A DNA stretch of 54,062 nucleotides, counting the filler, from Sluysia triapertura (Eukaryota): NCBI GenBank assembly GCA_046118255.1. It is 3 parts of 3 records of this genome, joined end to end, with 100 filler letters (N's around TTAATTAATTAA, not from the genome) between each part and the next. Parts side by side here need not be neighbours in the genome. Positions count along the whole stretch, not along the records: positions 16,076 to 28,568 come from JBJNIA010103987.1; 2 more parts are not named here. One strand, given 5' to 3'. Position 1 is the stretch's first letter. Every line of letters begins with the position of its first letter. The position numbers and the translations under genes are program-made. The notes under the pieces were generated by a model. It was not told the DNA's origin. It made no database searches and was given only the letters and a program-made list of their open reading frames with translations. Positions 13,877 to 50,472 of the stretch are shown in pieces.

Positions 13877-15705
13877 CTTAATAAATAATTAAATTTCATT
13901 AAAATGTGATTCAATGTTATATGTTTTCATTAGAAATAAATTATATACTACAAAATCACAATGTAATCTAAATTACCGGGTGTCGAAATTCGTATTGTTT
14001 TCTTAAGCAAACAGTAAATATTATTGAATATATGTTGCGTGAGTATTTATTCGATGAATATTTTACAAAATTTGTAATAAATGTTGCAGTTCTTATCATA
14101 AAACTATATTATGCAAATCAAAAAGTCAATCAATTACCTTAACGAAATCCATACAAAGATGAAATATAGCATCAAAATGGAAACCAAAAATTGAATATAA
14201 CAAAATATTGTTTAAATATTCATTATAATTATTAAAATCATGTATGCAGATTTAAATTTCAAAGGTAAATTGTTATTTATAGGTGTTTTTCATAAAGTTC
14301 ATATTCGTCAATGGATTCTTTGCGAGTTTAACACGGGTTCCAAAGTCACTGAAGGTTCCAAAGGTTTTAATAAAATTTCAAAAACATCTTCAATTTTTGT
14401 AAACATTAGAGTAATTGAAGTGGTTTTAAATATTTAGATAGGAAAACTCTATGACCTAGGATATACCTAGGAAATACCTAGATATTGAAGAGCATAACAA
14501 CCTGAAATTGATTCTGTGAACACACTGCAATCCAATTCAGGATTTTCAAGAATTTCTCTATTATCAAAACTCGGTATTTAACCCTTTATAAACCTAATTG
14601 CCACATAAACGAAAAATGGGTTGAAAATAACTCACTCCTTAAAATAGCTTACACCTAAAAGGTATAACTAGAGTCGTACTTATGAATTATTGAAAATAAA
14701 TGAAACGGTATCGTCTAACATCTATTAAAACGCTAACATACGAAAAAAGCTTCTTTTGTGCGTTTAATATGATATCGCCTGACATCTATTAACAGCAAAA
14801 AATGTTAAACTTCAGTCAACATTTATCACTAGGAAAGGTGAAATTTTGCTTCATAACATACTTGAAGTCAGAGTATCATCTATTTCGGCCAATGTAATAG
14901 TTTTTAGACAGAGAGAAATAAATGATATAAAACTAATATTGATTAAATAAAAAGAAATAATGATCATTTTTGACTAATACATACATTTTTATATTTTCTC
15001 AAACTTAAAGCTTTGTGTAAAGACTTTGTACTTACTCACATATTGCACAATAAACACACAGTAAATTGCAAAGCGAATGGTGGATATTTTCGATATTTAA
15101 TTTAGATTTTTAACTATTTCTTAACTATTTCTTGTTCAGACAATAAATTTTTTAACACAATTCTTATTTTTTTATGTGATATAAACATTTTGACTCTGAA
15201 CATTTATTACAAATGTTCAGAGTAACAATGATGTGTTGTAGTAACAGTGATGTCTGCTATGTTGGTGACTAATCAAGTTTAACAATGATATTTAACAATT
15301 TTTATTTGACTGTTTATAATTATCTAATTTTATTAGTTTTATTATTTTTAATTTCATCATTTTATTAGTTCTATTATTGATTTTGATTTCATCGATTTTT
15401 AATTTGGAATTTCAAAAGATATTAATTTTAAAGTATGTGATTTTTATTATCATTTTAAATTAAATTATTTTAAATTAAAATTTTTATTAAAAACTATTAT
15501 TTTTGAATTAAATTATTCTAAATTAAGCTAATGAAATCCAATTATTTTTAAATTAAAAAATTTTATTTTGTTTTATAGAAATATGACCCTTTGTTTTAAT
15601 CTGACTTCAAGGCCAGATTAAAACTACTATATATACAATCACAAAATCACATAAAACTCACAACAATATAACAAAAATTTTGCTTAAAAATTTGTTCATT
15701 AACTC

Positions 15706-15975: not shown

Positions 15976-16075
15976 NNNNNNNNNNNNNNNNNNNNNNNNN
16001 NNNNNNNNNNNNNNNNNNNTTAATTAATTAANNNNNNNNNNNNNNNNNNNNNNNNNNNNNNNNNNNNNNNNNNNN
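15976..16075. other. Assembly spacer (N44-TTAATTAATTAA-N44)
   Basis: 100-nt pad whose 12-mer has stops in all six frames; identical to 28569-28668. Confidence 0.98.
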
Positions 16076-16398
16076 GTTTTTATTTTAAGAATTTTTAAAG
16101 AGTAGTTTACCTAAGCTGACCTTTTGATTTGACATTAATATTACGAATATTTAGAAAGAACTAAATACATATAGGGTAGACGTTGACTATACGACATAAC
16201 CACTATTCACTACTTATAATAGCTAGAATATAAACCACCTTAAGTAAACTAATTTAAGAGCAAACACTCAAAGATTTTAAAAGGTTAAGTTACTAATCTG
16301 ATAAATTCTTCACAATAAATATTACTGTAGGAAATATACTTAAAGTAATATAACTAGGATATTTCTAGAGAGAATCTTGAACTTAAAAGTGCTGTTAC

Positions 16399-16438
16399 TT
16401 ACGAATACGTCTCTTTAGGTCTAAATCGTATGTCGTAA
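16399..16438 (-). other. 40-nt conserved hairpin, family A copy (intermediate to family B)
   Basis: CTTACGA/TCGTAAG and ATACG/CGTAT stems; followed by TAACAGCA on the minus strand, where other copies have TGTCAGC. Confidence 0.65.
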
Positions 16439-17130
16439 GCGGACCATTATTAATTATAAACAATTTGCACGAATAAATAAAAAGAACAAATCGTAGTAAT
16501 TTTAAAGTTTTAATGAAATTGATTTTTGATTTCATGAATCATTTGTAATATTAATGTTTATGTAATTCAATTGATTCAGACTTATTTTTGTGTGTCTTGT
16601 TCACTACTGCATATATTGTTTCATATGCTAATTTATCTCTGATTCCAATTGATGCTTGTGAATAATAATGTGATTAACAATGTTTAATTTAGAACATTAA
16701 TCTAATTTATTAAAATTAACTAATTTTTTTTAGTTTTTTCGAGAAATACAAGATCATTTTAATTCAACATTCATTTTTCGTAAAGGAAAATTCTGCCATT
16801 ACATGCATAAATTCTTGATAGTTCCATCAGTTATGACCTCAATAATTTTCTCACTTTTTTAAATTATTTTCATTTTCTGAGTATTTTACAGATTCACAGC
16901 TTTTTTTGGATTTAATTTTTTGATTGTTTAATCATAAATGTTTTCTAATTCTACCGAATGTATAAACAGAAGAATTCATTTTTTCATATTATTATGCCAT
17001 ATTGGGCTTTTTTTATTTTTGGTTAATTTTTTATTTAATTTCAGTTCATTAAATTAGGATTAAAATTACTTTATTAAATGTAATTTTTATTAATATTAAT
17101 TGTTTTTTCATATCATCATCACAATTATAG

Positions 17131-17250
17131 TGTAGTGGACTCCAGATTAATTCATGCCAATAACAAAAACACCAACACAAATCCACGCATTTTACATAAA
17201 CACATTATTAGACAAAGTACAACACATCAAACCACTACTCAATACATATT
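17131..17250 (+). mobile_element. Truncated LTR of the TGTAGTGG family
   Basis: Starts TGTAGTGGACTC like 2128, followed by the same AC-rich sequence type. Confidence 0.5.
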
Positions 17251-17285
17251 GCTAGTGTTTTCTTAGACTTAAGCTTATTCACTGC

Positions 17286-17730
17286 AAATTATCTGATGAG
17301 TCGGTTCGCCTAATACATACGCTTTATACCAAAATGGAGACGTGTTATTAGGATTTACTATAATTTCTTATTTGATGTTTAACTTAACACTCTTACTTAG
17401 AAACAGTTAAAATTAATTAATTAAATTTTTTATGGTGTTGCCTTTTAAAATTATCGATTATTTCACAACCCTTGTTATGGTGTTGCTTAAAATAACTTTA
17501 TGATTTTATACTTAAGCAACCCTTTTTATGGTGTTGCTTCGAAAAACTGACTTTCTGATTTTAAAATTTACGCAACCCTTTTTATGGTGTTGCTCGTCGA
17601 AAAATATATTAAATTAATTAAAGACAAAGTGTGTTACTTCAATATTTATTAAACAAATATATACTTAAAAAACCAGAGTTGGTACTTATCAGTTTATAAT
17701 GAAAATTACGCAACCCTTTTATGGTGTTGC
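17286..17730. repeat. Structured element, locus 1: multi-stem fold plus array of five GCAAC-CC-TTTTTAT-GG-T-GTTGC hairpins
   Basis: Fold at 17309-17352 (CCTAATA/TATTAGG). Hairpins at 17426-17441 (half copy), 17466-17486, 17514-17539, 17572-17593 and 17710-17730. Confidence 0.85.
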
Positions 17731-19774
17731 TTAAAATGAAAATGAATTTTAAGTATATTTTATGATTTCCGGATGGTGAATCAAACCTTAAAGGAAAATA
17801 AAATTACTTGTGCATGGAATCTTGCAATTGACTAAAAATTCTCGAAATGATAATTTTAATCTTCTTCAGATGCTAATTTCAAAACTGTAAATTTCTTAAC
17901 TCTAAAACACTTATGTTGAAATGAAATTTTGCTTACCTATTTATACTAATTGATTTCTTTCTCCATCTTGGATTTTCTTTCTTTGATTCAAACAATTGAT
18001 TTAGTAAAACAAAAAATTTTAAAATAATTTAATTCTTGCTATTTTTGTTTAATTAATTTAAAATAATTATTAATTTTATTATTTTTATTTTATTTTATTT
18101 TCGTAATTTTATTTTGTGATTTTATTTTCAATATTTTATTTTGTAATAAATTTAAAATAATATTTTGTTTTCCAAAATATAATAATATTTAAAATAAAAA
18201 TAAAAAATAAAAAATGATTAAATAAATAAAATATAAATATGAAACATACACACAAAACACGATTCACGCAACGTTAATTCTAACAATATAAAACATAAAC
18301 ACAGTCAATAATTTCATAATTATTAAATTTTTTTTATTATTGCTGCAATATTTTCATTGTTATCATTCTTTATGCATGTACGTGTATCTTTATGTAATAT
18401 TTCTGAAATAGAAAAGGCATTATCTCTCTTTTGAATTCTATCCTTGCTTTTATAGGTTACCGATGTAATTCCTTAAGATAATGTGTTACTTGAGATCTAT
18501 TTCCCACTTTGAGAATTAGTCTTGTTGCTTGTTTAATTATCTTAATCAAAAATCCGATAAATCATTAAAGGTGAGAATCTTTAGCCATATCAATTTCAAT
18601 ATTTCAACTTATTGTAATGGAAACATGAAAATATGTCAAATTATGTTTAAAGAAATAAATTCTTGAATTAAATTAAAATTAAGGGTGCTCAATATTTTAA
18701 CTAACAATTTAGTAATTCTTAGTATAATAAACAATTATTTGATTTGTTTTGATTCGCTGCTACGTGTTAAAATTTTGTATATATTTAACGATGATTTTAA
18801 CCAAATCTCTATAATCTTGAATTTATCTAGTTTTCAATCATGTTAATTTTATACAATTTCATTTCCTTTGTACAATAAACCTTTTAGCAAAGTTTCTTAA
18901 TGCAAAATGTTACTTGATTTTAAGATTTCATACAATAATGTACAAATGATTTTATGTGAAAACTCGAACTTGTACATCAAGTTTTCTGTCATCTTCTGAA
19001 GCATACATATTTTAGTTTATGTATGTTGACTGTTAGAAATTTAGTTAATATAAAATTTAACAGAAAATATCTAACTAATAAGATAATTGAAATTTTTATT
19101 TATTTAAATCTTTTATGCACAATTATATTAGGTTGTTAAGTTCTGTTAAATAAAAAACAAATATTTTATTTTATTAAAATAATGATGAATGTATATCATG
19201 TTAATATTATGCATTAAGTTAATGTTATTACTAAATCAATAATAATTTCTTCAAATTTATTTTATACGGGCAAATTAAATTTCGCAAAAATTTTTAAATT
19301 AAGATTTTATCAAACTTTATAAAATAAATCAAAAATTAATTTATAAACTAACGAAAATTTTTTTATGTATAAAACAAGTCTCCAAAGCAAAAAATGGTAA
19401 AAATCAATAAATCAATTTGATCAACCAAATTAAATAAATTAATCAACTTGTACCAAAATAATAAGCGAACAATAGTTGTTGACAATTTATGTATCTAATG
19501 ACTTTAAAACAATTTATGTAGTTAATGACTTAAAAAGTTTTGTAGTTATTATTTATGTTATTTCATTATCCAATAATAATAATAATTATAAGAATAAAAA
19601 TAAAAATAAAAGTAAAAATAAGAATAAAAATAAAATTTCATAATCAAATAATAATAATTATAAAATATCAACTATTAAAACTAGTAAATCTTATACTTAA
19701 ATTAATTATATTTAAAATAATTTAATACATTTACAATTATTATATTTTTATTTTAACATTTTTATATATGTGCG

Positions 19775-20240
19775 AAGGTTCTAACTTAAAATGAACCCGA
19801 CTTGCAAAATTATCAATGTCTGGAGGAAAGTTGGGCTAATTAGATACGGTTTATGTCACTAACTGACGACGGTCTAATTAGACTTAATGAATGACAACGT
19901 GTGTGGTGAAGCTAAGTGATAAAAACGCAAAATTTAACAACCTTATTCATACGTTGAGACAGCCTTTACGGTCTGTCGAAAATTTAATGATTTTAAAATT
20001 AAATCAGCTTTTTACGCACTGATTAAGTTTGGCAAATGATTTTAAATACAAGAAAACTTTACGATATAAAGGTTTATTAATCGTACAGAGTCAAAATAAA
20101 CTTCAATTAATATAAAACTTAGACAAAAGTATAATACCAATAATATTTTAAATCTTAAGGTATTGATCCTACCTTTGATTGAAATGATTTTAGTTGAAAG
20201 TTTAAGTCAGCCTTTTTACGGTCTGACAATAAATTAAAGA
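19775..20240. repeat. Structured element, locus 2: multi-stem fold plus three bulged hairpins
   Basis: Fold at 19836-19881 (CTAATTAGA/TCTAATTAG, GTCA/TGAC). Hairpins at 19958-19977, 20002-20024 and 20206-20227. Alignable by eye with 32562-33051. Confidence 0.85.
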
Positions 20241-20933
20241 TTTTAAGTAGGAGTTTAGCCCTATTTAATTAAAATTAGGACATGAAAAAACTTATTAAAA
20301 TAGAATTTCTTTTTCATGGAATAAATTGAGATCTTATAAAAACTGGAATATTTTAATTTCTCTATGGCGACTGTCTGTTTTGTGTCTTGTGAATGTCTAA
20401 AATTTTGTTAATTATTTGGTATTTTTATACCTGTTTTTTGTCATCCATCTTGTTTAATTTAAACAAATTTTTAAATTGATCTATTTAAACAAAAAATTTT
20501 TTAAAAATAATTTTTCGTTTTCATTTAAATTTATATTTTAGTTTTATTTGGCTAAATAATTTTATTTAGATAATTAATTTATTTTTATATGATAATAATA
20601 TTTACAATTAGTATAAAATAACACAAACAATAAATAAAATAAATAATATAAACAAAATTAATCAAATCAAATAAATCAGTTTATAATCAAATAAGTTTTA
20701 ATAAAATTAATAAAAAATCAATCAAATCAATCAAATCAATCTAAATCAAATAAGTAAAAATCAGTCAAATCAGTTTGAATCATATGAATAGGTTTCTAGT
20801 AGGTTTTCTCCTCTAATCCAACACATGGCCAATATACAATGTTACACATGACAGTACCAAATAATGTATCCGGTCATATGAAAATAACTCAGCTCACTCT
20901 TTAGTTAAATTACAAAATGATGGTTATTCTTTT

Positions 20934-25073: not shown

Positions 25074-25401
25074 AATATGTTCATGAATTGAATATAATAT
25101 AAATGATATTACTATTGCTTAAAATATGTGGTTTAAATTTCGCTCAACTGCAAAAATGTTTGAGATCTCATCGTCGATTTTAATATTTCTAAATTTATTT
25201 CCCAGTTCTATTAATCGCATTATTTGGTTCGCCAATTTTGTCAATATATCCTGTAACTGTTTTAAATATCCCTAATTATATAAGAATTGATAAAAATTCG
25301 TATTATTTGGTTTTGGGTGAGTCATCATATAATGGCAGTGTAATTATTGTATCTATTATTTGAGAATTTGATTTGAATTTTTTATTTATATGTTTCTATT
25401 C

Positions 25402-25520
25402 GTGAGTACTCTATGACACCGGGCTTACGCACTTAAGAGCCTATGCATAGATGTCAGCGAAAGGTTATTGGAAAGAATGGAGAGATTAAACAGAATTATT
25501 GATCCGCTAAAACCAGCGAG
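25402..25520 (+). other. Family A hairpin element copy
   Basis: GTGAGT, 40-nt hairpin at 25411-25450 (CTATG/CATAG, GGCT/AGCC), TGTCAGCG, TATTGGA and a small CGCT/AGCG hairpin. Close to the 44792 copy. Confidence 0.8.
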
Positions 25521-28568: not shown

Positions 28569-28668
28569 NNNNNNNNNNNNNNNNNNNNNNNNNNNNNNNN
28601 NNNNNNNNNNNNTTAATTAATTAANNNNNNNNNNNNNNNNNNNNNNNNNNNNNNNNNNNNNNNNNNNN
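28569..28668. other. Assembly spacer (N44-TTAATTAATTAA-N44)
   Basis: Same 100-nt pad as 15976-16075. Confidence 0.98.
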
Positions 28669-29097
28669 AATTAAAGACAAGTAATAAATCTAAAAACTTG
28701 TTTTTAAATTTTTCTTCAAAATGCTATATAAAATTAATTCATACATCTTCCATAAAATGGTGTCCGGATCCAGCCGCCATAAAAATATTTATAACACATA
28801 TAAATTTTGGTCAAAAGCTGAGAGCAGTAAAAAAGACAATAAAAATTATTCATATGATAAAAAATAAATTAATCTTCATAAATATTTTAAAATATGTTTC
28901 ATTTTAATAGATTTTAATTTTTTTTATCATTCGCACAATTTTTGGCATTACCATATAAATCGATTGCTTTTTATTATCATATTAATAATTATCATGAATC
29001 GAACACGTAATTTAAAGTTGCATATTTTGCACAATATTAATTGTAACAATGACAACATATTAATAATTGTTTAATTAAAAAAGCTCTACAAAATAAC

Positions 29098-31172
<2,075 letters not shown>

Positions 31173-31987
31173 TTATATTTTGAATATTTATTTTAATTCT
31201 ACAAGAAACTTCAAATTACATAATATTATATATAGTAAACATCAAAAAGTAAATATATAATCGTATATTTAAAAAGTATTTAAAAATCCAACTTAATTTA
31301 TATTTTTTTAAAAAATTCGGTTTCTAAAAATACTAAAATCATATTATTTTATAGTTTTTAAAAATTATAATCTCAATGAAAATTTAGACATATCTAAAAA
31401 ATTGAAAGATTTAAACAAAATTACAAATAACACATAGCATTTGTGATAAACGCATTCAATTTTATATTTTAATGCACAAACAATGTGAAATTTTATTTTA
31501 TTTCATATACATATAGAGATATAACATAAGTCACTTATCTTTAATAATAAAATAAAACGTGACTTATTTTAAGCATATTATGAATCAAAAAATATGTTAC
31601 CCTGCGGTAGCTCATCTTGAAACTCAAATATATTACTAATACAAACAGTAATAATAATAATAAAAAAAACACAAACTATTTTAATTTCAGCACATCATAA
31701 ACTTTACAATTTTCCACTACAAATATTATATTTCCATTTCTACCTTAAATATCAACTTAAAGTTTCTGCTTTTTATTTCAATCATATATCTAAGAAGTTC
31801 TAAACTCTTCTTCAAATCTACAAATAAGAATTATTAGAACTTTAATATCTTCGGGAAATGTTAAAATAAAAAACTATACATTATCAATTTCATTTTGTCA
31901 AAGCACCAAGCGCTAAAAGCACCCATGAATTTATTAATAATATTATATAATAATTATTATTGGTTTTAATTTTTGTTGAATGTATAT

Positions 31988-32100
31988 GTGAGTTCCTTAC
32001 GATCCTGGAATTACTCACTTAAAGGCTAGTTCTTAAGTGTCAGCAAAAAAATAAATAATTGGAGGTCAATTAGGAATTGGTGCTATGACGAATGCTAATG
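31988..32100 (+). other. Family A hairpin element copy
   Basis: GTGAGTTCCTTACGA...TTACTCACTTAA...TAAG-TGTCAGC; hairpin at 31997-32036. Confidence 0.75.
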
Positions 32101-32561
32101 TATTTTGGATGTTAATAAGTTAATAATAATACTAATAATAGGTGAAGTATTTTATATATGATCCTAATATTTAAAAAGGATCTGAATTCTGTTGATATGA
32201 CTTTGGACTTTATGATTTGTTTTTCTAATTTATTATAAACAATTTATTTATTGATTTTTTTATTTAACAATTTATTTATTATTTTATTGCAATTTATTGA
32301 TTTGTTTTTAAAATCATTTAGATTTAAATTATTGGAATAAACCAAGTAATTATATTTATTTTAAATTATTAATTAGACATAAATTTTAATATCATTAAAA
32401 TTAATTAAACTTAACAAATAAATTAATTAAATAAATAAATTAAATGTTTAAATAAATTAAATAAAATATATTGTTTAATTCTGGCCAAGGCCAGCTAAGT
32501 CGACTATTATTGGTCGCAAGATTTACCAAGCATCTCACATTTTTGTAAACACAACTTTTCA

Positions 32562-33051
32562 AAGGTTCTGTCTTAAAAGAAACCTATCTAACAAAATCGT
32601 TAATGTCGGGAGGAAAGTACGGCTAATTAGAGACGATTTATGTCACTAGATGACGACGGTCTAATTAGACTTATGAGTAACGCAAAGAAATTAACTGTTA
32701 AAAATAATCACAATTATGGCGAATGATGTGCAATAGGAATGTAGAATAGTTAAAGTTAATAATAGAAATGCGAAATAATTGAGGTTAATAACCTTAATTA
32801 TACTTTAAGACAGCCTTTTTAAGGTCTGTCAAATGTTCAAATAATTTAACGGTTAAATCAACCTTTTTACGGTCTGATTAAATTATCGTGGATTGTAAAT
32901 AAAACAAACTAAGTTGACTACCGAATAATTTTATTCAAAAAATTACTGTAATAGACTTTACAAGACAAACAATATAATAATGATAATATTTTGAATCTTA
33001 AGATAATTATCTTAGATTACAAAATCAAATTTTAGTTAAAGTTTAAGTCAG
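32562..33051. repeat. Structured element, locus 3: multi-stem fold plus bulged hairpins
   Basis: Fold at 32623-32668. Hairpins at 32809-32830 and 32856-32879; a third is cut off after TTTAAGTCAG at 33051. Homologous to 19775-20240. Confidence 0.85.
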
Positions 33052-34628: not shown

Positions 34629-35413
34629 TTATTTAAAATTAAAATTATATTTATATTTGAGAAATACTGTACATGTACATACATTTACAAATGTTAAACA
34701 GAAGACCAACTCTCGAGATGATTTAAAAATTTTTGATTGTAGTGGCAAAGTTTCTAATACTTTATGAGCATGTTTTAATAACTGTACAGATAATTGGATT
34801 TTATAATTTAATATTTTAACAACTTTGAGAACCATTAAATATATGAGATCTTCTTTGCACTCAATATTAATGGAATTTATATTTGTTAAACTATTTTCTA
34901 AATTTTCTTCTGAAATAACTTCTGCTTCTAGAATAGAAATAATGTTGTCTATCATTTTGATATCTCTATTATTATATCACCATTTTTGTTGGCCACCGTC
35001 TGCGTTCAAAGTGGAATATCTTTGCAATGCTGGACAAATCCGAAATTGTGTCAAAAGCTTCCGTATGGTCATTTACGTTTGTAATCAAAAAAATAAAAGG
35101 GAAACTTGAACTAAGAGAAAATAAGCACAAAACACGTACATTTCAGATATAAAAATATAAAATAAAAATTGAGAAATAGAGCAAGAGGAGAGTGTGTCAT
35201 GACGATGATAAAAATGACAATGAAAACTGAGTTTAATATTTTGATTTAAAAATGTTAATAAAAGAAATTTTACTAGACGTTTGTGATTTTATAATGATAA
35301 GTAGTGTAATCTTGTGAATGATGTGTAAAATTTGCTATGGTATAATTTTTTGTGTTGAGGTTTGTGTAGATGGTTTATGTGATGTGTAGATAGGTGTAGG
35401 CTGGGCCACTACA
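34629..35413 (-). mobile_element. Gypsy-like LTR (35413-34987), PBS-like TGG and gag-like ORF relic
   Basis: Minus strand begins TGTAGTGGCCC, ends GGCCAACA, then AAAA-TGGTGA, then ORF 34955..34629. Confidence 0.55.
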
Positions 35414-36735
35414 ACAACAATTTAAAGAACATCGTATTTTTAGGTTTAAATACTTGTCATATTTCACTTTATTTTGTTAATCTTGTGTGATTCTCAATAA
35501 TACCTTTTACACATACAACTTATTGCAAGATAAGAAAATGATTGGATATTAACTTGAGGTAGTTACATTGTAACAGTACGTTATGCACACAAACGTACAA
35601 ATATGTCAACATATAGATAATATCTACCTTCAACTTGTTGTCATAAGCTTAGTAAGGATAACTCATTAAGTCAAAACACCATAAGCAATCGACTTGTGGT
35701 GCACTCTACTGAGGATTAATATTTAATAACAAAGCCCGAAATAATTATTGTTCTATTTAATAATATAAATAACGAATAGTTTGTAATAAAAATTTCATTT
35801 TTGTAAAACATTTAATTATCACACTTAATAAAATGCCTGTTTTCTAAAATTTGCACTTATAATATAAATTAATCAATAAAAAATAAGTAGCTTAAAAGCT
35901 TTTAATATTGATTCTTAAAAGGAAATCTGAATTTTAAGTAGTAAAAAAGAAAGTAAGATTAAAAATAATAATCTCGGAAATATGAGATCCCAAAATAACT
36001 AAATAGAAAATTGACATTATTGTTTATATAAATAATTGGATAATAGGTTGGAAAGAAAGTGTATTTAAAAATTGAAAAATTTTTTATTTAATAAAATAAT
36101 TATCATACTTATTGAGATATGATTCCACATCTGATATCTATTTAATCAAAAAACATAATAATAGAATAATATATATTAAGCATGATTTTCCTACGTTAGA
36201 AAATAAAAGTAGTAATTATTAATAGTAATCAATACATCAATTACTGATTGAAGCTAACATTAATCATTTTGCAGTTCCTGTTAAAATAAAGGGAAAAGTT
36301 GACTGTATAAGCTATAAAGCTATAGCGAAAAGTAATGCTGATGTTGTTTTGTTTAATGAAGACAACCTACTATCGTATTGAATTCGCTTATGATCGAAGA
36401 CTTAGTAAAACAACACAAAAACTGTAAATTTAAGAAACTAAAACAATAATATAGAAAATCTACCAACGGATATTTTTATTCAAAATTTCAGCCAAAAACA
36501 TGTAAAAATGGTTCAAAGCATGACAGTTACAGAAACAGAAAAAACTAAATCTAAAGTAGACGAAAACAGGAAAAAATATCATTCAAGCATTTTCTTACAA
36601 TTTTCTCGAAATTTTGAATAAAATATATTAACATTCTGAAATCTTTCTTGAGCAACATGATTTCATTGAAAATCAATCTTATAGGTGCACTTGATCAGAT
36701 TCAATTCCATGTGCACTGTCATAGTTTTGATATTA

Positions 36736-37769: not shown

Positions 37770-38045
37770 GATGAAGATCACCCAGTAGCATTTACCAGAC
37801 GACACAAATATTATTGACAGTGACGACGAACTGAGTACTGAGGAAAATTCAATACCGCAAAAAATTGTTTGGCAATCATACCAGACGAATAATAATTGTC
37901 ATCGCTATTGGAAAGGATATTGACATGTGACTTATTTTCGAAAACTATTTTAAATCATGAGTAATGTAATGGACTAAACCAATACATATACAGTGCAGTT
38001 TGATCCAGCAAAACCCATAGGTGTGTAAGATTTATTTGGTGTGAT
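37770..38045 (+). mobile_element. piggyBac transposase N-terminal relic
   Basis: Acidic IIDSDDELSTEE, then VTYFRKLF and NTYTVQFDPAKPI in broken frames (cf. piggyBac-family TN.Y..Q.DP.KP). Confidence 0.5.
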
Positions 38046-38050
38046 TATTT

Positions 38051-38160
38051 ATTCCTTACGATGTTAGACTTCCTCACTTAAGGGCCTAATTAAATAATTA
38101 ATGTTATAATGTCAGGAATTTAGTTTCTGTCTTCTTGCAATGACAGGTTAAATTATATAT
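38051..38160 (+). other. Family A element, partial copy
   Basis: TCCTTACGATGTTAGACTTCCTCACTTAAGGGCCTAA, with a tail (TGTCTTCTTGCAATGACA) resembling that of the 6817 copy. Confidence 0.7.
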
Positions 38161-40513: not shown

Positions 40514-42796
40514 CACTAGATTGCCTGAGATTTCTTGTATATCTATATTGCCCAAAAACAGTCAAAATAACTGCATTGTGAAAAAATAACTAATGTGCAA
40601 AGAAATTTGTTTAAAATTATTTTTTAATTTTTATATTATTTACACTTATACAACAAGTTATTAGTAAATATTAACAATAAAAAAATTTACTCTAATTGGA
40701 AAAAAAATAATTTATGCATTATTATTTGTAAATTTTATGCAAATGAAAGTGGAAATCTTTTTATGCGTACATCTTTTGACATTTTTCACATATTATTTGT
40801 TTTGTTGTGGCAAAGTCGTACTTGAAAAAATTTGCGTTTGTGAGAATGGGTTGCATTTGATCTTTGTGGGTCTTCATGTTCTGATAAATTTTTCTGTCTT
40901 GCAACTCTGTATTCGTTGGAAAGCTGTTCTGCTAATTGAATTAAGAACTCTTTTCGTTCTATTTGTATTCCTGTCGTATCTTTGTAAATGATCCAAGAAT
41001 TTATGACAGCCAAATCTAAAATATTGAAAAATATTTGGAGGGGCCATCTACGAGAATTAGCTTTTACTGTATATTTTCTGGCCATCTGATCCGCCATATC
41101 AACTCCAAATTTTGTACTGTTATAAAATTAAATTGATTCCGGTAACATTTTTTTATTACTTTTATCAATTTTAACAAATTTATGCTTAGAACTTTGAACA
41201 GCTACTTTTTAATTTGGTTTGTTTTTATATATTGTAACACAATTCTCTTATTTAAATAACAAAGTGGAAAAACGAGGCATGTTATCCTTCGTTTGTTTGG
41301 CTGCTTTTGGTATTTCTCTTTGGTTTCCTCTAATAGTTCCAACTAGAGTTGATTTATGACCAATAATTTTGTCGCGAGTGACACGCTAGTGAAAAAGTTA
41401 TCGGTCGTGATATTTTTTCCACAGTTTGCATATGGCTCGACAAGTTTCAGAACAAAGTCACTGAGAAGCATTGACGATGGTCGTTGTTCATCTTTCCCTA
41501 AACATGAAAACCATTCAAAATATATTTGCTACTAACATATAATACAAGTCAAATTTGTTGGGTTTATTAAGTGTATATTGCGTAAACCTGCACCTGGTTT
41601 TTGACGGAAATAATTGCTCATCAACTGTTATATTTTGCCCTAGTTGATAGCAAGCTTGACCATTTTCAATAAACCTCTCCCATATTTCCGAAACCAGAGC
41701 ATATTTATTTGTTTGTAGGCGCCTACTTCTTTCGGTTCTTTTGTCAAAACGAATAAATCGTATGATTTGCTTGATCGTTTCTCTGGTCATAGTTTCTCTA
41801 AAAAATTTGGGACCCCACTTTGCTAACCATAAATAACTCAATTTTAAATTTTTTGCATCGTAGGATCCACAAACATATAAAATCCCAATAAATGCATGTA
41901 TTTCCGTTAATGTTGTTGTCCAATCGTTCCGCAAAATTCGGCGGCTTTCTGTGCACTTTCTTATATGTTTAATAATATAGTTATCTATTATCAATGAGAA
42001 TGCACTGATAAGATTATCTGTCATAATGTTCCTTTTAGCGTAGCCTGTTGGGCCTTTGGCACCCTTGAAAATATAAGTAGATGGTAACCTTCCAGGAATA
42101 CCACCTTGGTTAATTTTTGTCCACATATTACCATCAGCAGCTGTTTCGACCTTCTGAAACGTATTTTCAGTTTCTTTATCAGAATCTGAACTAGTTAGCA
42201 CCCTACACCTTTTCCTGGGCATATTGATGATAGTTTCATTTTCATCACTGGTGATAGACTTTTCATCGCTATCTTCAGCATCAGATGTTTCACTTTGAAT
42301 ATAATCCGCTTTGTTGCATTTGATTCTATATCGGAGCACTCTTCACTTATGTTCCAATAACTCATTTCTGTTCGACATTTTTTTCATGAAGTTAGGGCAC
42401 ACGAAATAAAATAAACAACTTGTTAGAACAACACTCGAATTTAGTTTCTTGAGCAATTGCAACTTATCAGGTATACGCCCAAATCGACAATTTATCATGC
42501 ATCGGTATGTTACCGTAATCGAAATTTACTCAATTCAATAATAAGAATCTTTTGATTATTTAAAATTTCCCAAGCAGTCAACATGACTGCTTCTGGGCAA
42601 TATAGGTATATATAGGCAATGTAGGCAATATATACGGAAGTAAAGCAGGGCGGAAGTAACTACAATTATTCATAAACGTATTTATGTGCTGTTGAAAAAG
42701 TCACCAAATTCTAAAGAATTGTGTCATTATATACATAATTGTTTTTCTAATTGAAATTAAAAAATAGTCAAAATGACTGTCTTGGGCAATCTAGTG
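40514..42796 (-). mobile_element. Full-length defective piggyBac transposon (2283 bp)
   Basis: TIRs CACTAGATTGCCYRAGA (15/17 match); TTAA on the right and CTAA on the left; internal inverted repeats at 40543-40574 and 42574-42605; encloses a transposase. Confidence 0.93.
40735..42378 (-). pseudogene. piggyBac transposase (PGBD4-like) with frameshifts and stops
   Basis: ORFs 41515..42339 and 40786..41097 plus intervening frames give ITVDEQLFPSKTRCRFTQY, ITTDNFFTS, GVDMADQM, SRRWPLQIFFNILDLAVINSWIIY and a degenerate C-terminal Cys-rich domain. All three catalytic Asp motifs are present. Confidence 0.93.
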
Positions 42797-44685: not shown

Positions 44686-44791
44686 TCAACAGTGTGGAAA
44701 TTTAATGAGAATTAAATAGTTTATGTTATGTGAGAATTTGGTTTAAAACTTTAAAATATTTAATTTGTAATATTTCTTTATGTGTTTATAT

Positions 44792-44925
44792 GTGAGTCCT
44801 CTATGATACAGGGATAACACACTTATGGACCGATACATAGATGTCAGCGTAAAAGAGTATTGGAAGCTTTTAGGTCAAGAAAAATTTGAATTGGATTTCT
44901 GCTAACTTTTAGCGATGTTATAATT
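44792..44925 (+). other. Family A hairpin element copy
   Basis: GTGAGT, 40-nt hairpin at 44801-44840 (CTATG/CATAG), TGTCAGCG, TATTGGA and a GCTA/TAGC hairpin. Confidence 0.8.
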
Positions 44926-50310: not shown

Positions 50311-50472
50311 GTTCTAAAACAATGAGATGTGTGATGTTTGGAATATTTCGTAGATGAATATTTCGTAGATTTGCAGAGGTGTAGTAGGTGTTGTGTAATA
50401 GCATACGTTGAATGTGCTTTGATATCTGTTTTTGATGTATTGAAATCATTGGTAATGTTTTGGGCCACTACA
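48400..50472 (-). mobile_element. Decayed Gypsy-like LTR retrotransposon (LTR start plus gag/protease relics)
   Basis: Minus strand begins TGTAGTGGCCC at 50472, as at 35413. Broken frames include KFLKRN..DME...TFVMKLKKKC (gag F..R.Q...E....F...L....C) and MQFEIHT (protease-like). Confidence 0.5.
50245..50310. repeat. (TAA)n microsatellite
   Basis: Perfect run; explains the poly-I and poly-Y ORFs. Confidence 0.97.

Follow-up and report, generated by a model that had tools for sequence, protein, structure and literature searches.

Arrays of bulged hairpins with variable but paired stems, accompanied by a second structured module, at three non-coding loci of Sluysia triapertura

The window analysed here, a stretch of 54,062 nucleotides (filler included) from Sluysia triapertura (GCA_046118255.1), has a GC content of 19-33% by 2-kb windows, mostly near 24%. 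Its coding content includes KDM5 exons with JmjN, ARID, PHD and JmjC domains on the minus strand (29037-31172), the JmjC exon having its top matches in molluscs and other invertebrates at no more than 63% identity, which points to a fast-evolving animal that is probably a spiralian, and a GNT-I exon identified by Pfam scan. A broken piggyBac-type transposase (PF13843) occupies at least three frames at 40786-42342 (minus strand), and a weak match to a Mos1-type HTH at 14216-14434, possibly a mariner relic, lies below the cut-off (E 0.003). Identical N-run separators at 15976-16075 and 28569-28668, placed around TTAATTAATTAA, delimit three window pieces that need not adjoin in the genome. Scattered across this window are three non-coding stretches, designated loci A, B and C, each with a row of small bulged hairpins. 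T-rich then A-rich tracts of 300-450 nt, which resemble bidirectional promoter regions, flank the loci (17950-18310, 20340-20790, 32150-32480 and 16890-17260), and these tracts are followed by plus-strand frames, decayed or orphan, at about 18370, 20865 and 33250.

All hairpin units are assigned to the minus strand. At locus A, the unit at 17426-17441 (A1) has one arm only, a 3' half whose 5' arm is missing; the unit at 17465-17486 (A2) has a TTGTTAT loop and an outer pair that is mismatched on the plus strand and G-U on the minus strand; and perfect copies are found at 17514-17539 (A3, with an outer stem of 7 bp, the copy itself spanning 17516-17537), at 17572-17593 (A4) and, as the distant copy of this locus, at 17710-17730 (A5). 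Locus B comprises a perfect copy at 19958-19977 (B1), a unit with a 6-bp outer stem and a broken core at 20002-20024 (B2; 20003-20023), and a perfect distant copy at 20206-20227 (B3). Locus C includes a unit with a perfect outer stem and a TTTTTAA loop at 32809-32830 (C1), a unit with one mismatch on the plus strand, G-U on the minus strand, at 32856-32879 (C2; 32857-32878), and a 5' arm alone at 33047-33051 (C3), where the homology to B stops. The array coordinates and sequences given for these three loci in the original prediction thus check out with small corrections, as do its imperfect copies at 20002 and 32856, while its count of about ten copies becomes nine two-armed hairpins and two halves. 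The predicted layout of close copies followed by one distant copy also stands, with a slightly narrower range for the close copies (45-56 nt rather than 44-56 nt) and about 138, 203 and 190 nt to the distant copy. Each of the three loci contains a broken or half unit. Hairpin loops are 5-7 nt long and read (A/G)UAAA(AA) on the strand that carries the bulged A, i.e. the minus strand. On the plus strand, the core TTTTAYGG varies at Y only, with a flanking ATGATTTT word of weak conservation, and the T-run of the core ranges from 3 to 5.

The hairpin arrays are real. A generic scan of both strands for CC, a loop of 4-9 nt, GG, one bulged base of any kind and an outer stem yielded seven matches with a stem of at least 4 bp and six with at least 5 bp, all of them inside A, B and C, on one strand and with a T bulge; unbulged equivalents numbered zero in the same scan. 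Local shuffles gave on average 1.3 (at least 4 bp) and 0.39 matches (at least 5 bp, maximum 4), none of 300 attaining the observed counts, and dinucleotide shuffles gave a mean of 0.56 and a maximum of 4 hairpins. As an outside control, 57 public loci with two cores in tandem supplied 170 cores, none of which had an outer stem of at least 4 bp, and a single one had 3 bp. Across the alignment of nine units and their four stem sequences, 60 of 63 pair cells are paired, compared to only 20-38% in slid controls, with double changes at four of the seven pairs. The outer stem varies in sequence yet stays paired, as predicted. Because there are only four distinct stems, the double changes amount to about five independent ones, and the copies of locus A, which have one stem in common, contribute no independent covariation.

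The arrays belong to a larger structured unit with a second module, which was absent from the original prediction. Each array is accompanied on one side by another covarying stem-loop, in which an outer stem of 7-9 bp leads through an internal loop, with conserved ACG-N-TTTA and GACG motifs in plus-strand writing, to a small terminal hairpin. This module is found on the minus strand at 17309-17352 in A (outer stem of 7 bp around the ACG-N-TTTA and GACG core), at 19836-19881 in B (outer stem of 9 bp) and at 32623-32668 in C. A model trained on these three modules recovered a held-out fourth copy, designated E, at 16381-16487 (29.6 bits, rough E-value of 5e-4; runner-up at 18.2 bits), the module itself spanning 16398-16439 in the opposite orientation (plus strand) with a third outer-stem sequence. 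Over the four copies, 28 of 28 outer-stem cells are paired and four of seven pairs doubly changed, for three different sequences, and a descriptor of the module matched the window exactly four times (A, B, C and E) versus 0.002 times per shuffle. The four copies fall within a 17-kb interval of the window, spread over two contig pieces, and no hairpin array was detected beside E in the 320 nt before an assembly gap.

Selection on the hairpin fold is supported by the comparison of loci B and C, which are homologous at 83% identity over 112 nt and 68% over 289 nt in a self-comparison of the window. With stem positions defined by pairing, albeit with knowledge of both copies, identity between B and C reaches 50/51 at stem positions and 235/359 elsewhere. 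The same contrast was observed in the array region only (24/25 at stems, 151/237 at other positions, p-value of 3e-4) and within base classes, both for GC (20/21 vs. 49/104) and AT positions (30/30 vs. 197/266), and three position-specific stems are retained between the two loci. Since this pattern is not expected from the uniform decay of one dead element, the two lineages would have diverged under a constraint on the fold, or been constrained in place, while the broken or half unit in every locus points to later decay. The homology among the loci supports an interpretation of A, B and C as dispersed paralogous copies.

No folding would be needed if the TTTTAYGG cores were instead double-stranded DNA sites for a transcription factor, with inverted repeats arising from template switching and spread by tandem duplication. 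We take these cores to resemble posterior-Hox/Cdx sites, and the limited variation of the core and its ATGATTTT neighbor, along with the common stem of the A copies, would fit such sites. Template switching should however remove the bulge, and all intact units retain it. The three stems kept between B and C, a T-run whose variation alters half-site spacing, and the covariation of a separate module likewise argue against DNA sites, which we consider an improbable explanation.

The strand assumed in the original prediction, i.e. the one with the bulged A, is the one indicated by a promoter-like motif common to A and B. The sequence CAAGATGG occurs twice in the window (shuffle mean of 0.02). Both copies lie on the minus strand, one upstream of A and one of B, and each precedes a TATAAA located about 200-215 nt upstream from the distant hairpin. 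In A, CAAGATGG then TATA-like TATAAATA span 17938-17970 (minus strand), 215 nt upstream of A5, and in B, CAAGATGG then TATA-like TATAAAAA span 20422-20452 (minus strand), about 200 nt upstream of B3. Sequence similarity between A and B extends about 330 nt past the distant hairpin, with a p-value of 0.013 for the proximal part and no significance for the far part. TATA-like words are frequent at such an AT content (TATAAA[AT]A[GA] matches 18 times), and C, which breaks off within its distant hairpin, has no homology to the A/B promoter region. Folding z-scores lean slightly towards the plus strand (-2.8, -1.75 and -2.06 vs. -2.3, -1.1 and -1.8 on the minus strand), and wobble pairs, examined by eye, are split between strands: the mismatches of A2 and C2 are G-U on the minus strand, and two or three others, in the A module, in the helix left of the B module and in the B2 core, are G-U on the plus strand.

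Locus A also includes a GT-rich stretch with a sharp CCACTACA end (17131-17240, minus strand). The 110 nt before CCACTACA at 17131 are homologous to 2128-2236 (z-score of 11.9 with the end motif; p-value of 0.004 without it), and G[GT]CCACTACA occurs four times in the window for 0.07 expected, while no significant similarity to this sharp end was observed in B, C or E. At the three other sharp ends, ORF-like sequence comes after, on the TGTAGTGG strand, so that the CCACTACA junction could be a 5' end. No short inverted repeat partner for the end of A was found within 2.6 kb at two mismatches, no target-site duplication could be assigned for want of an opposite end, no TGG follows the sharp end in a check for a primer-binding site, and self-comparison of the window revealed no paired repeat around A, B or C. 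Among the other occurrences, the GT-rich stretch at 50320-50472 has the same CCACTACA junction with TGG directly after and an AAT microsatellite before, and a decayed coding-like region at 850-2250 adjoins the sharp end at 2128. Interpreting this decayed frame as Penelope-like was not confirmed, as it had no Pfam match, and neither an HMMER search of one plus frame against 1.84 billion representatives nor a minus-frame search returned a homologue.

Searches for a carrier and for relatives covered protein, RNA and nucleotide resources. Pfam scans of 17, 67 and 108 open frames, the latter two sets picked by composition from 149 and 321, identified no gag, pol, integrase, Rep, helicase, capsid or transposase ORF linked to the arrays; 6 and 9 read-through frames gave no gag-pol Pfam match, and the orphan frame at 20865 had no homologue. 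A comparison to Rfam, already envisaged in the original prediction, gave no match at the gathering score, including to any ribozyme, the sole match over a locus being to snoR29 (27.6 bits for a cut-off of 50, E 0.9). On inspection by eye against consensus sequences, resemblances to hammerhead, twister, HDV-like, RNase P, SECIS and K-turn structures were also set aside, Rfam giving no match to any of them, and the hammerhead core CTGANGA...GAAA matched the window six times and A, B, C and E zero times. Pattern scans of three public collections (viral contigs, metagenome and GTDB) found no copy of the array. Neither the hairpin pattern of A nor the module pattern matched any locus in viral contigs, the hairpin pattern of B matched four public loci, each a single core without array, and a two-core pattern matched 3 viral, 42 metagenome and 12 GTDB loci, none of which had outer stems. 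The model R1 gave two weak matches (E 0.051) over 49 loci, and no further unit below an E-value of 0.3 on the window. We found no description of such a hairpin array in the literature, and Repbase/Dfam, outside this search, could hold an entry. Overall, these loci represent a multi-part structured element which is real, under selection, and without a catalogued family in Rfam.

The units could instead be a host family of structured non-coding RNAs, e.g. divergent transcripts of bidirectional promoters before orphan genes, serving as protein decoys or scaffolds, and no transposon enzyme was found near the loci. The plus-strand loops would then presumably read as U-rich, CPE-like words. Strong stem conservation next to 35% spacer divergence fits selection in place, and by eye A, B and C are each followed on the right, after several hundred nt, by a plus-strand frame that is decayed or orphan. 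On the other hand, a host family does not readily account for four module copies so close together on two contig pieces, all of them with parts broken or missing, or for a sharp junction of A common to another locus, and no Rfam match was obtained, so that we regard a host RNA family, which would then be an undescribed structured non-coding RNA, as unlikely.

Hairpins are predicted with DNA parameters as well, and could act as single-stranded DNA signals for an HUH-type transposase or primase of a rolling-circle element (Helentron-like or IS200/REP-like), in which case the plus strand would show a bulged T and a T-rich loop. Such a role has precedents in IS608, whose TnpA touches an unpaired stem T and a loop T, and in REP elements, whose activity requires the bulge, as described in PMC8266576. 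More generally, the end hairpins of IS200/IS605, REP/BIME (PMC8266576) and DINE-1/HINE Helentrons (PMC4067079) are described as imperfect palindromes whose bulge is required and whose loops contain T, often present in repeated copies and mobilised in trans, non-autonomous Helentrons having terminal stem-loops and central repeats (PMC4067079), and the wobble pairs observed here favour neither strand. Unlike in these systems, neither an HUH enzyme nor a guide tetranucleotide nor subterminal inverted repeats were found here, and the hairpins are repeated at internal positions rather than placed at an end. Helentrons and HINEs are marked by subterminal inverted repeats of 11-15 bp with one 3' terminal stem-loop, whereas a scan of locus A (17101-18400) for such repeats of at least 11 bp returned only AT-rich internal 11-mers of low complexity, and none at the element ends. 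The scanned frames include no Rep or helicase fragment, the DNA hairpin energies are modest (-2 to -6.5 kcal/mol), and a single-stranded DNA signal leaves the promoter-like motif at a near-constant distance unexplained; we accordingly assign a low probability to this alternative.

The arrangement of the loci instead recalls the control regions of retroelements. LTRs are described as following the order of TATA box, stem-loops, GT-rich tract and CA end, with structure kept more than sequence (PMC3601003, PMC2664473), and the loci studied here include a TATA-like box at two of three loci, AATAAA on the minus strand downstream of the module at one of three (B only), and a GT-rich tract that is clear in A. 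Read on the minus strand, the unit runs from the TATA-like box through the bulged-A hairpins and the module to the GT-rich tract and a CA end, which suggests an RNA produced from the control end of a mobile element. The stem-loops of LTR R regions (HIV TAR, HTLV RexRE, MLV and HML) are reported in the same order, with structure kept as sequence drifts (PMC2664473, PMC3601003), but differ from the three to five equivalent bulged hairpins distributed here over about 600 nt. The explanation we favour, tentatively and at somewhat short of an even chance, is that the arrays act in RNA as a multivalent signal for protein binding and lie in the LTR-like control end of a mobile-element family that is old and has diversified, where they would form the core, conserved in structure, of a non-coding unit that is dispersed and measures at least about 0.9 kb. 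The broken or half unit in each locus, as expected of decaying insertions, counts in favour of a mobile element, while confidence is limited because no second end and no linked ORF were found, AATAAA is restricted to one locus, the sharp end is ambiguous, z-scores lean to the plus strand, and TATA words are common.

Under this mobile-element explanation, minus-strand transcription by polymerase II would begin about 30 nt past the TATA-like box and proceed through the distant hairpin, the close cluster, the module and the GT-rich tract end, in this order. The resulting RNA, of roughly 0.6-0.8 kb and derived from the control end of the element, would carry three to five equivalent sites, with each hairpin exposing its bulged A and, on top of a free-sequence stem, a CC-(A/G)UAAAA-GG cap. 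Recognition by one protein would rest on the bulged A together with the CC/GG pairs and the A-rich loop, with avidity provided by the three to five copies. This partner may be element-encoded or a co-opted host protein, with a putative role in packaging, export or TAR-like activation, and the copies would stem from different subfamilies, partly decayed since insertion.

The proposal of a multivalent protein-binding signal draws on known systems in which bulged-A hairpins serve this purpose, namely the MS2 operator and the L-A binding site (PMC4403262, PMC4569859). In the yeast L-A/M totiviruses, the viral binding site is described as a stem-loop with a protruding A needed for Gag-Pol binding and packaging (PMC4569859), yet this site sits in an RNA virus genome, while no viral ORF or sequence link was found for the arrays here. 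The MS2 operator and its engineered synonymous MBS arrays, like the arrays here, are composed of short bulged-A hairpins with free stems and unrelated linkers (PMC4403262), but the present arrays are in animal genomic DNA without a coat-like ORF in Pfam scans. The MS2-like geometry originally proposed holds for the bulged A within a free-sequence stem, as seen in minus-strand folds, and not for the loop, as the MS2 operator consensus requires an ANCA tetraloop (PMC4403262) that is absent here. Identity with the MS2 operator was thus ruled out by A-rich loops of 5-7 nt: failing the tetraloop test, these hairpins are not MS2 operators, although they may be of the operator type in their working. 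These loops sit within a scheme that otherwise follows the 5-bp stem, bulge and 2-bp stem spacing of the MS2 operator.

For other element classes, the mark of Penelope pseudo-LTRs and retrozymes is described as a type I hammerhead core (bioRxiv 10.64898/2026.07.22.740005), which has zero occurrences in A, B, C and E. With their defining features not found or not established, we did not file the unit as an LTR, a Helentron or a Penelope pseudo-LTR. Planarian Burro elements, giant Ty3/Gypsy elements with tandem repeats and accessory ORFs and no hairpin arrays in the part of the description considered (PMC6431247), and LTR-mediated retrocopies with chimeric cargo (PMC5131818) are likened to this unit by description and represent a possible host group and context only.

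A bolder and rather unlikely version of the preferred explanation is that of a natural "synonymous" operator array in an animal mobile element, in which three to five phage-operator-like bulged-A hairpins with interchangeable stems, together with a second conserved fold, would be transcribed from the element's own promoter and cooperatively bound by an element-encoded capsid-like or regulatory protein. If true, this would represent an undescribed RNA-protein recognition system and possibly an orthogonal RNA-tagging pair, and a cognate protein, if one exists, would mean that an animal genome had given rise to a multivalent scheme of recognition resembling that of phage operators. Cis-acting packaging, export and activation signals are poorly catalogued in invertebrate mobile elements, and since the site has a fixed shape, free letters and repeated copies, its recognition rules could be deduced from natural variants, with tests on oligonucleotides of 22 nt.

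Two additional features were observed in the window. A second dispersed family of about 50-100 nt has five copies, at 25366-25473, 31975-32048, 44758-44865 and 38030-38110 (+) and at 6790-6885 (-), with a consensus fold of 13 pairs, seven of which are doubly changed, and an invariant CACTTA. Separately, a 430-nt stretch at 34987-35419 starts with TGTTGGCC, ends with CCACTACAACAACA, and includes TATA-like and AATAAA words as well as a GT-rich end; flanked by ATTTT and ATTTA, it looks by eye like a solo LTR with a decayed 5-bp duplication.
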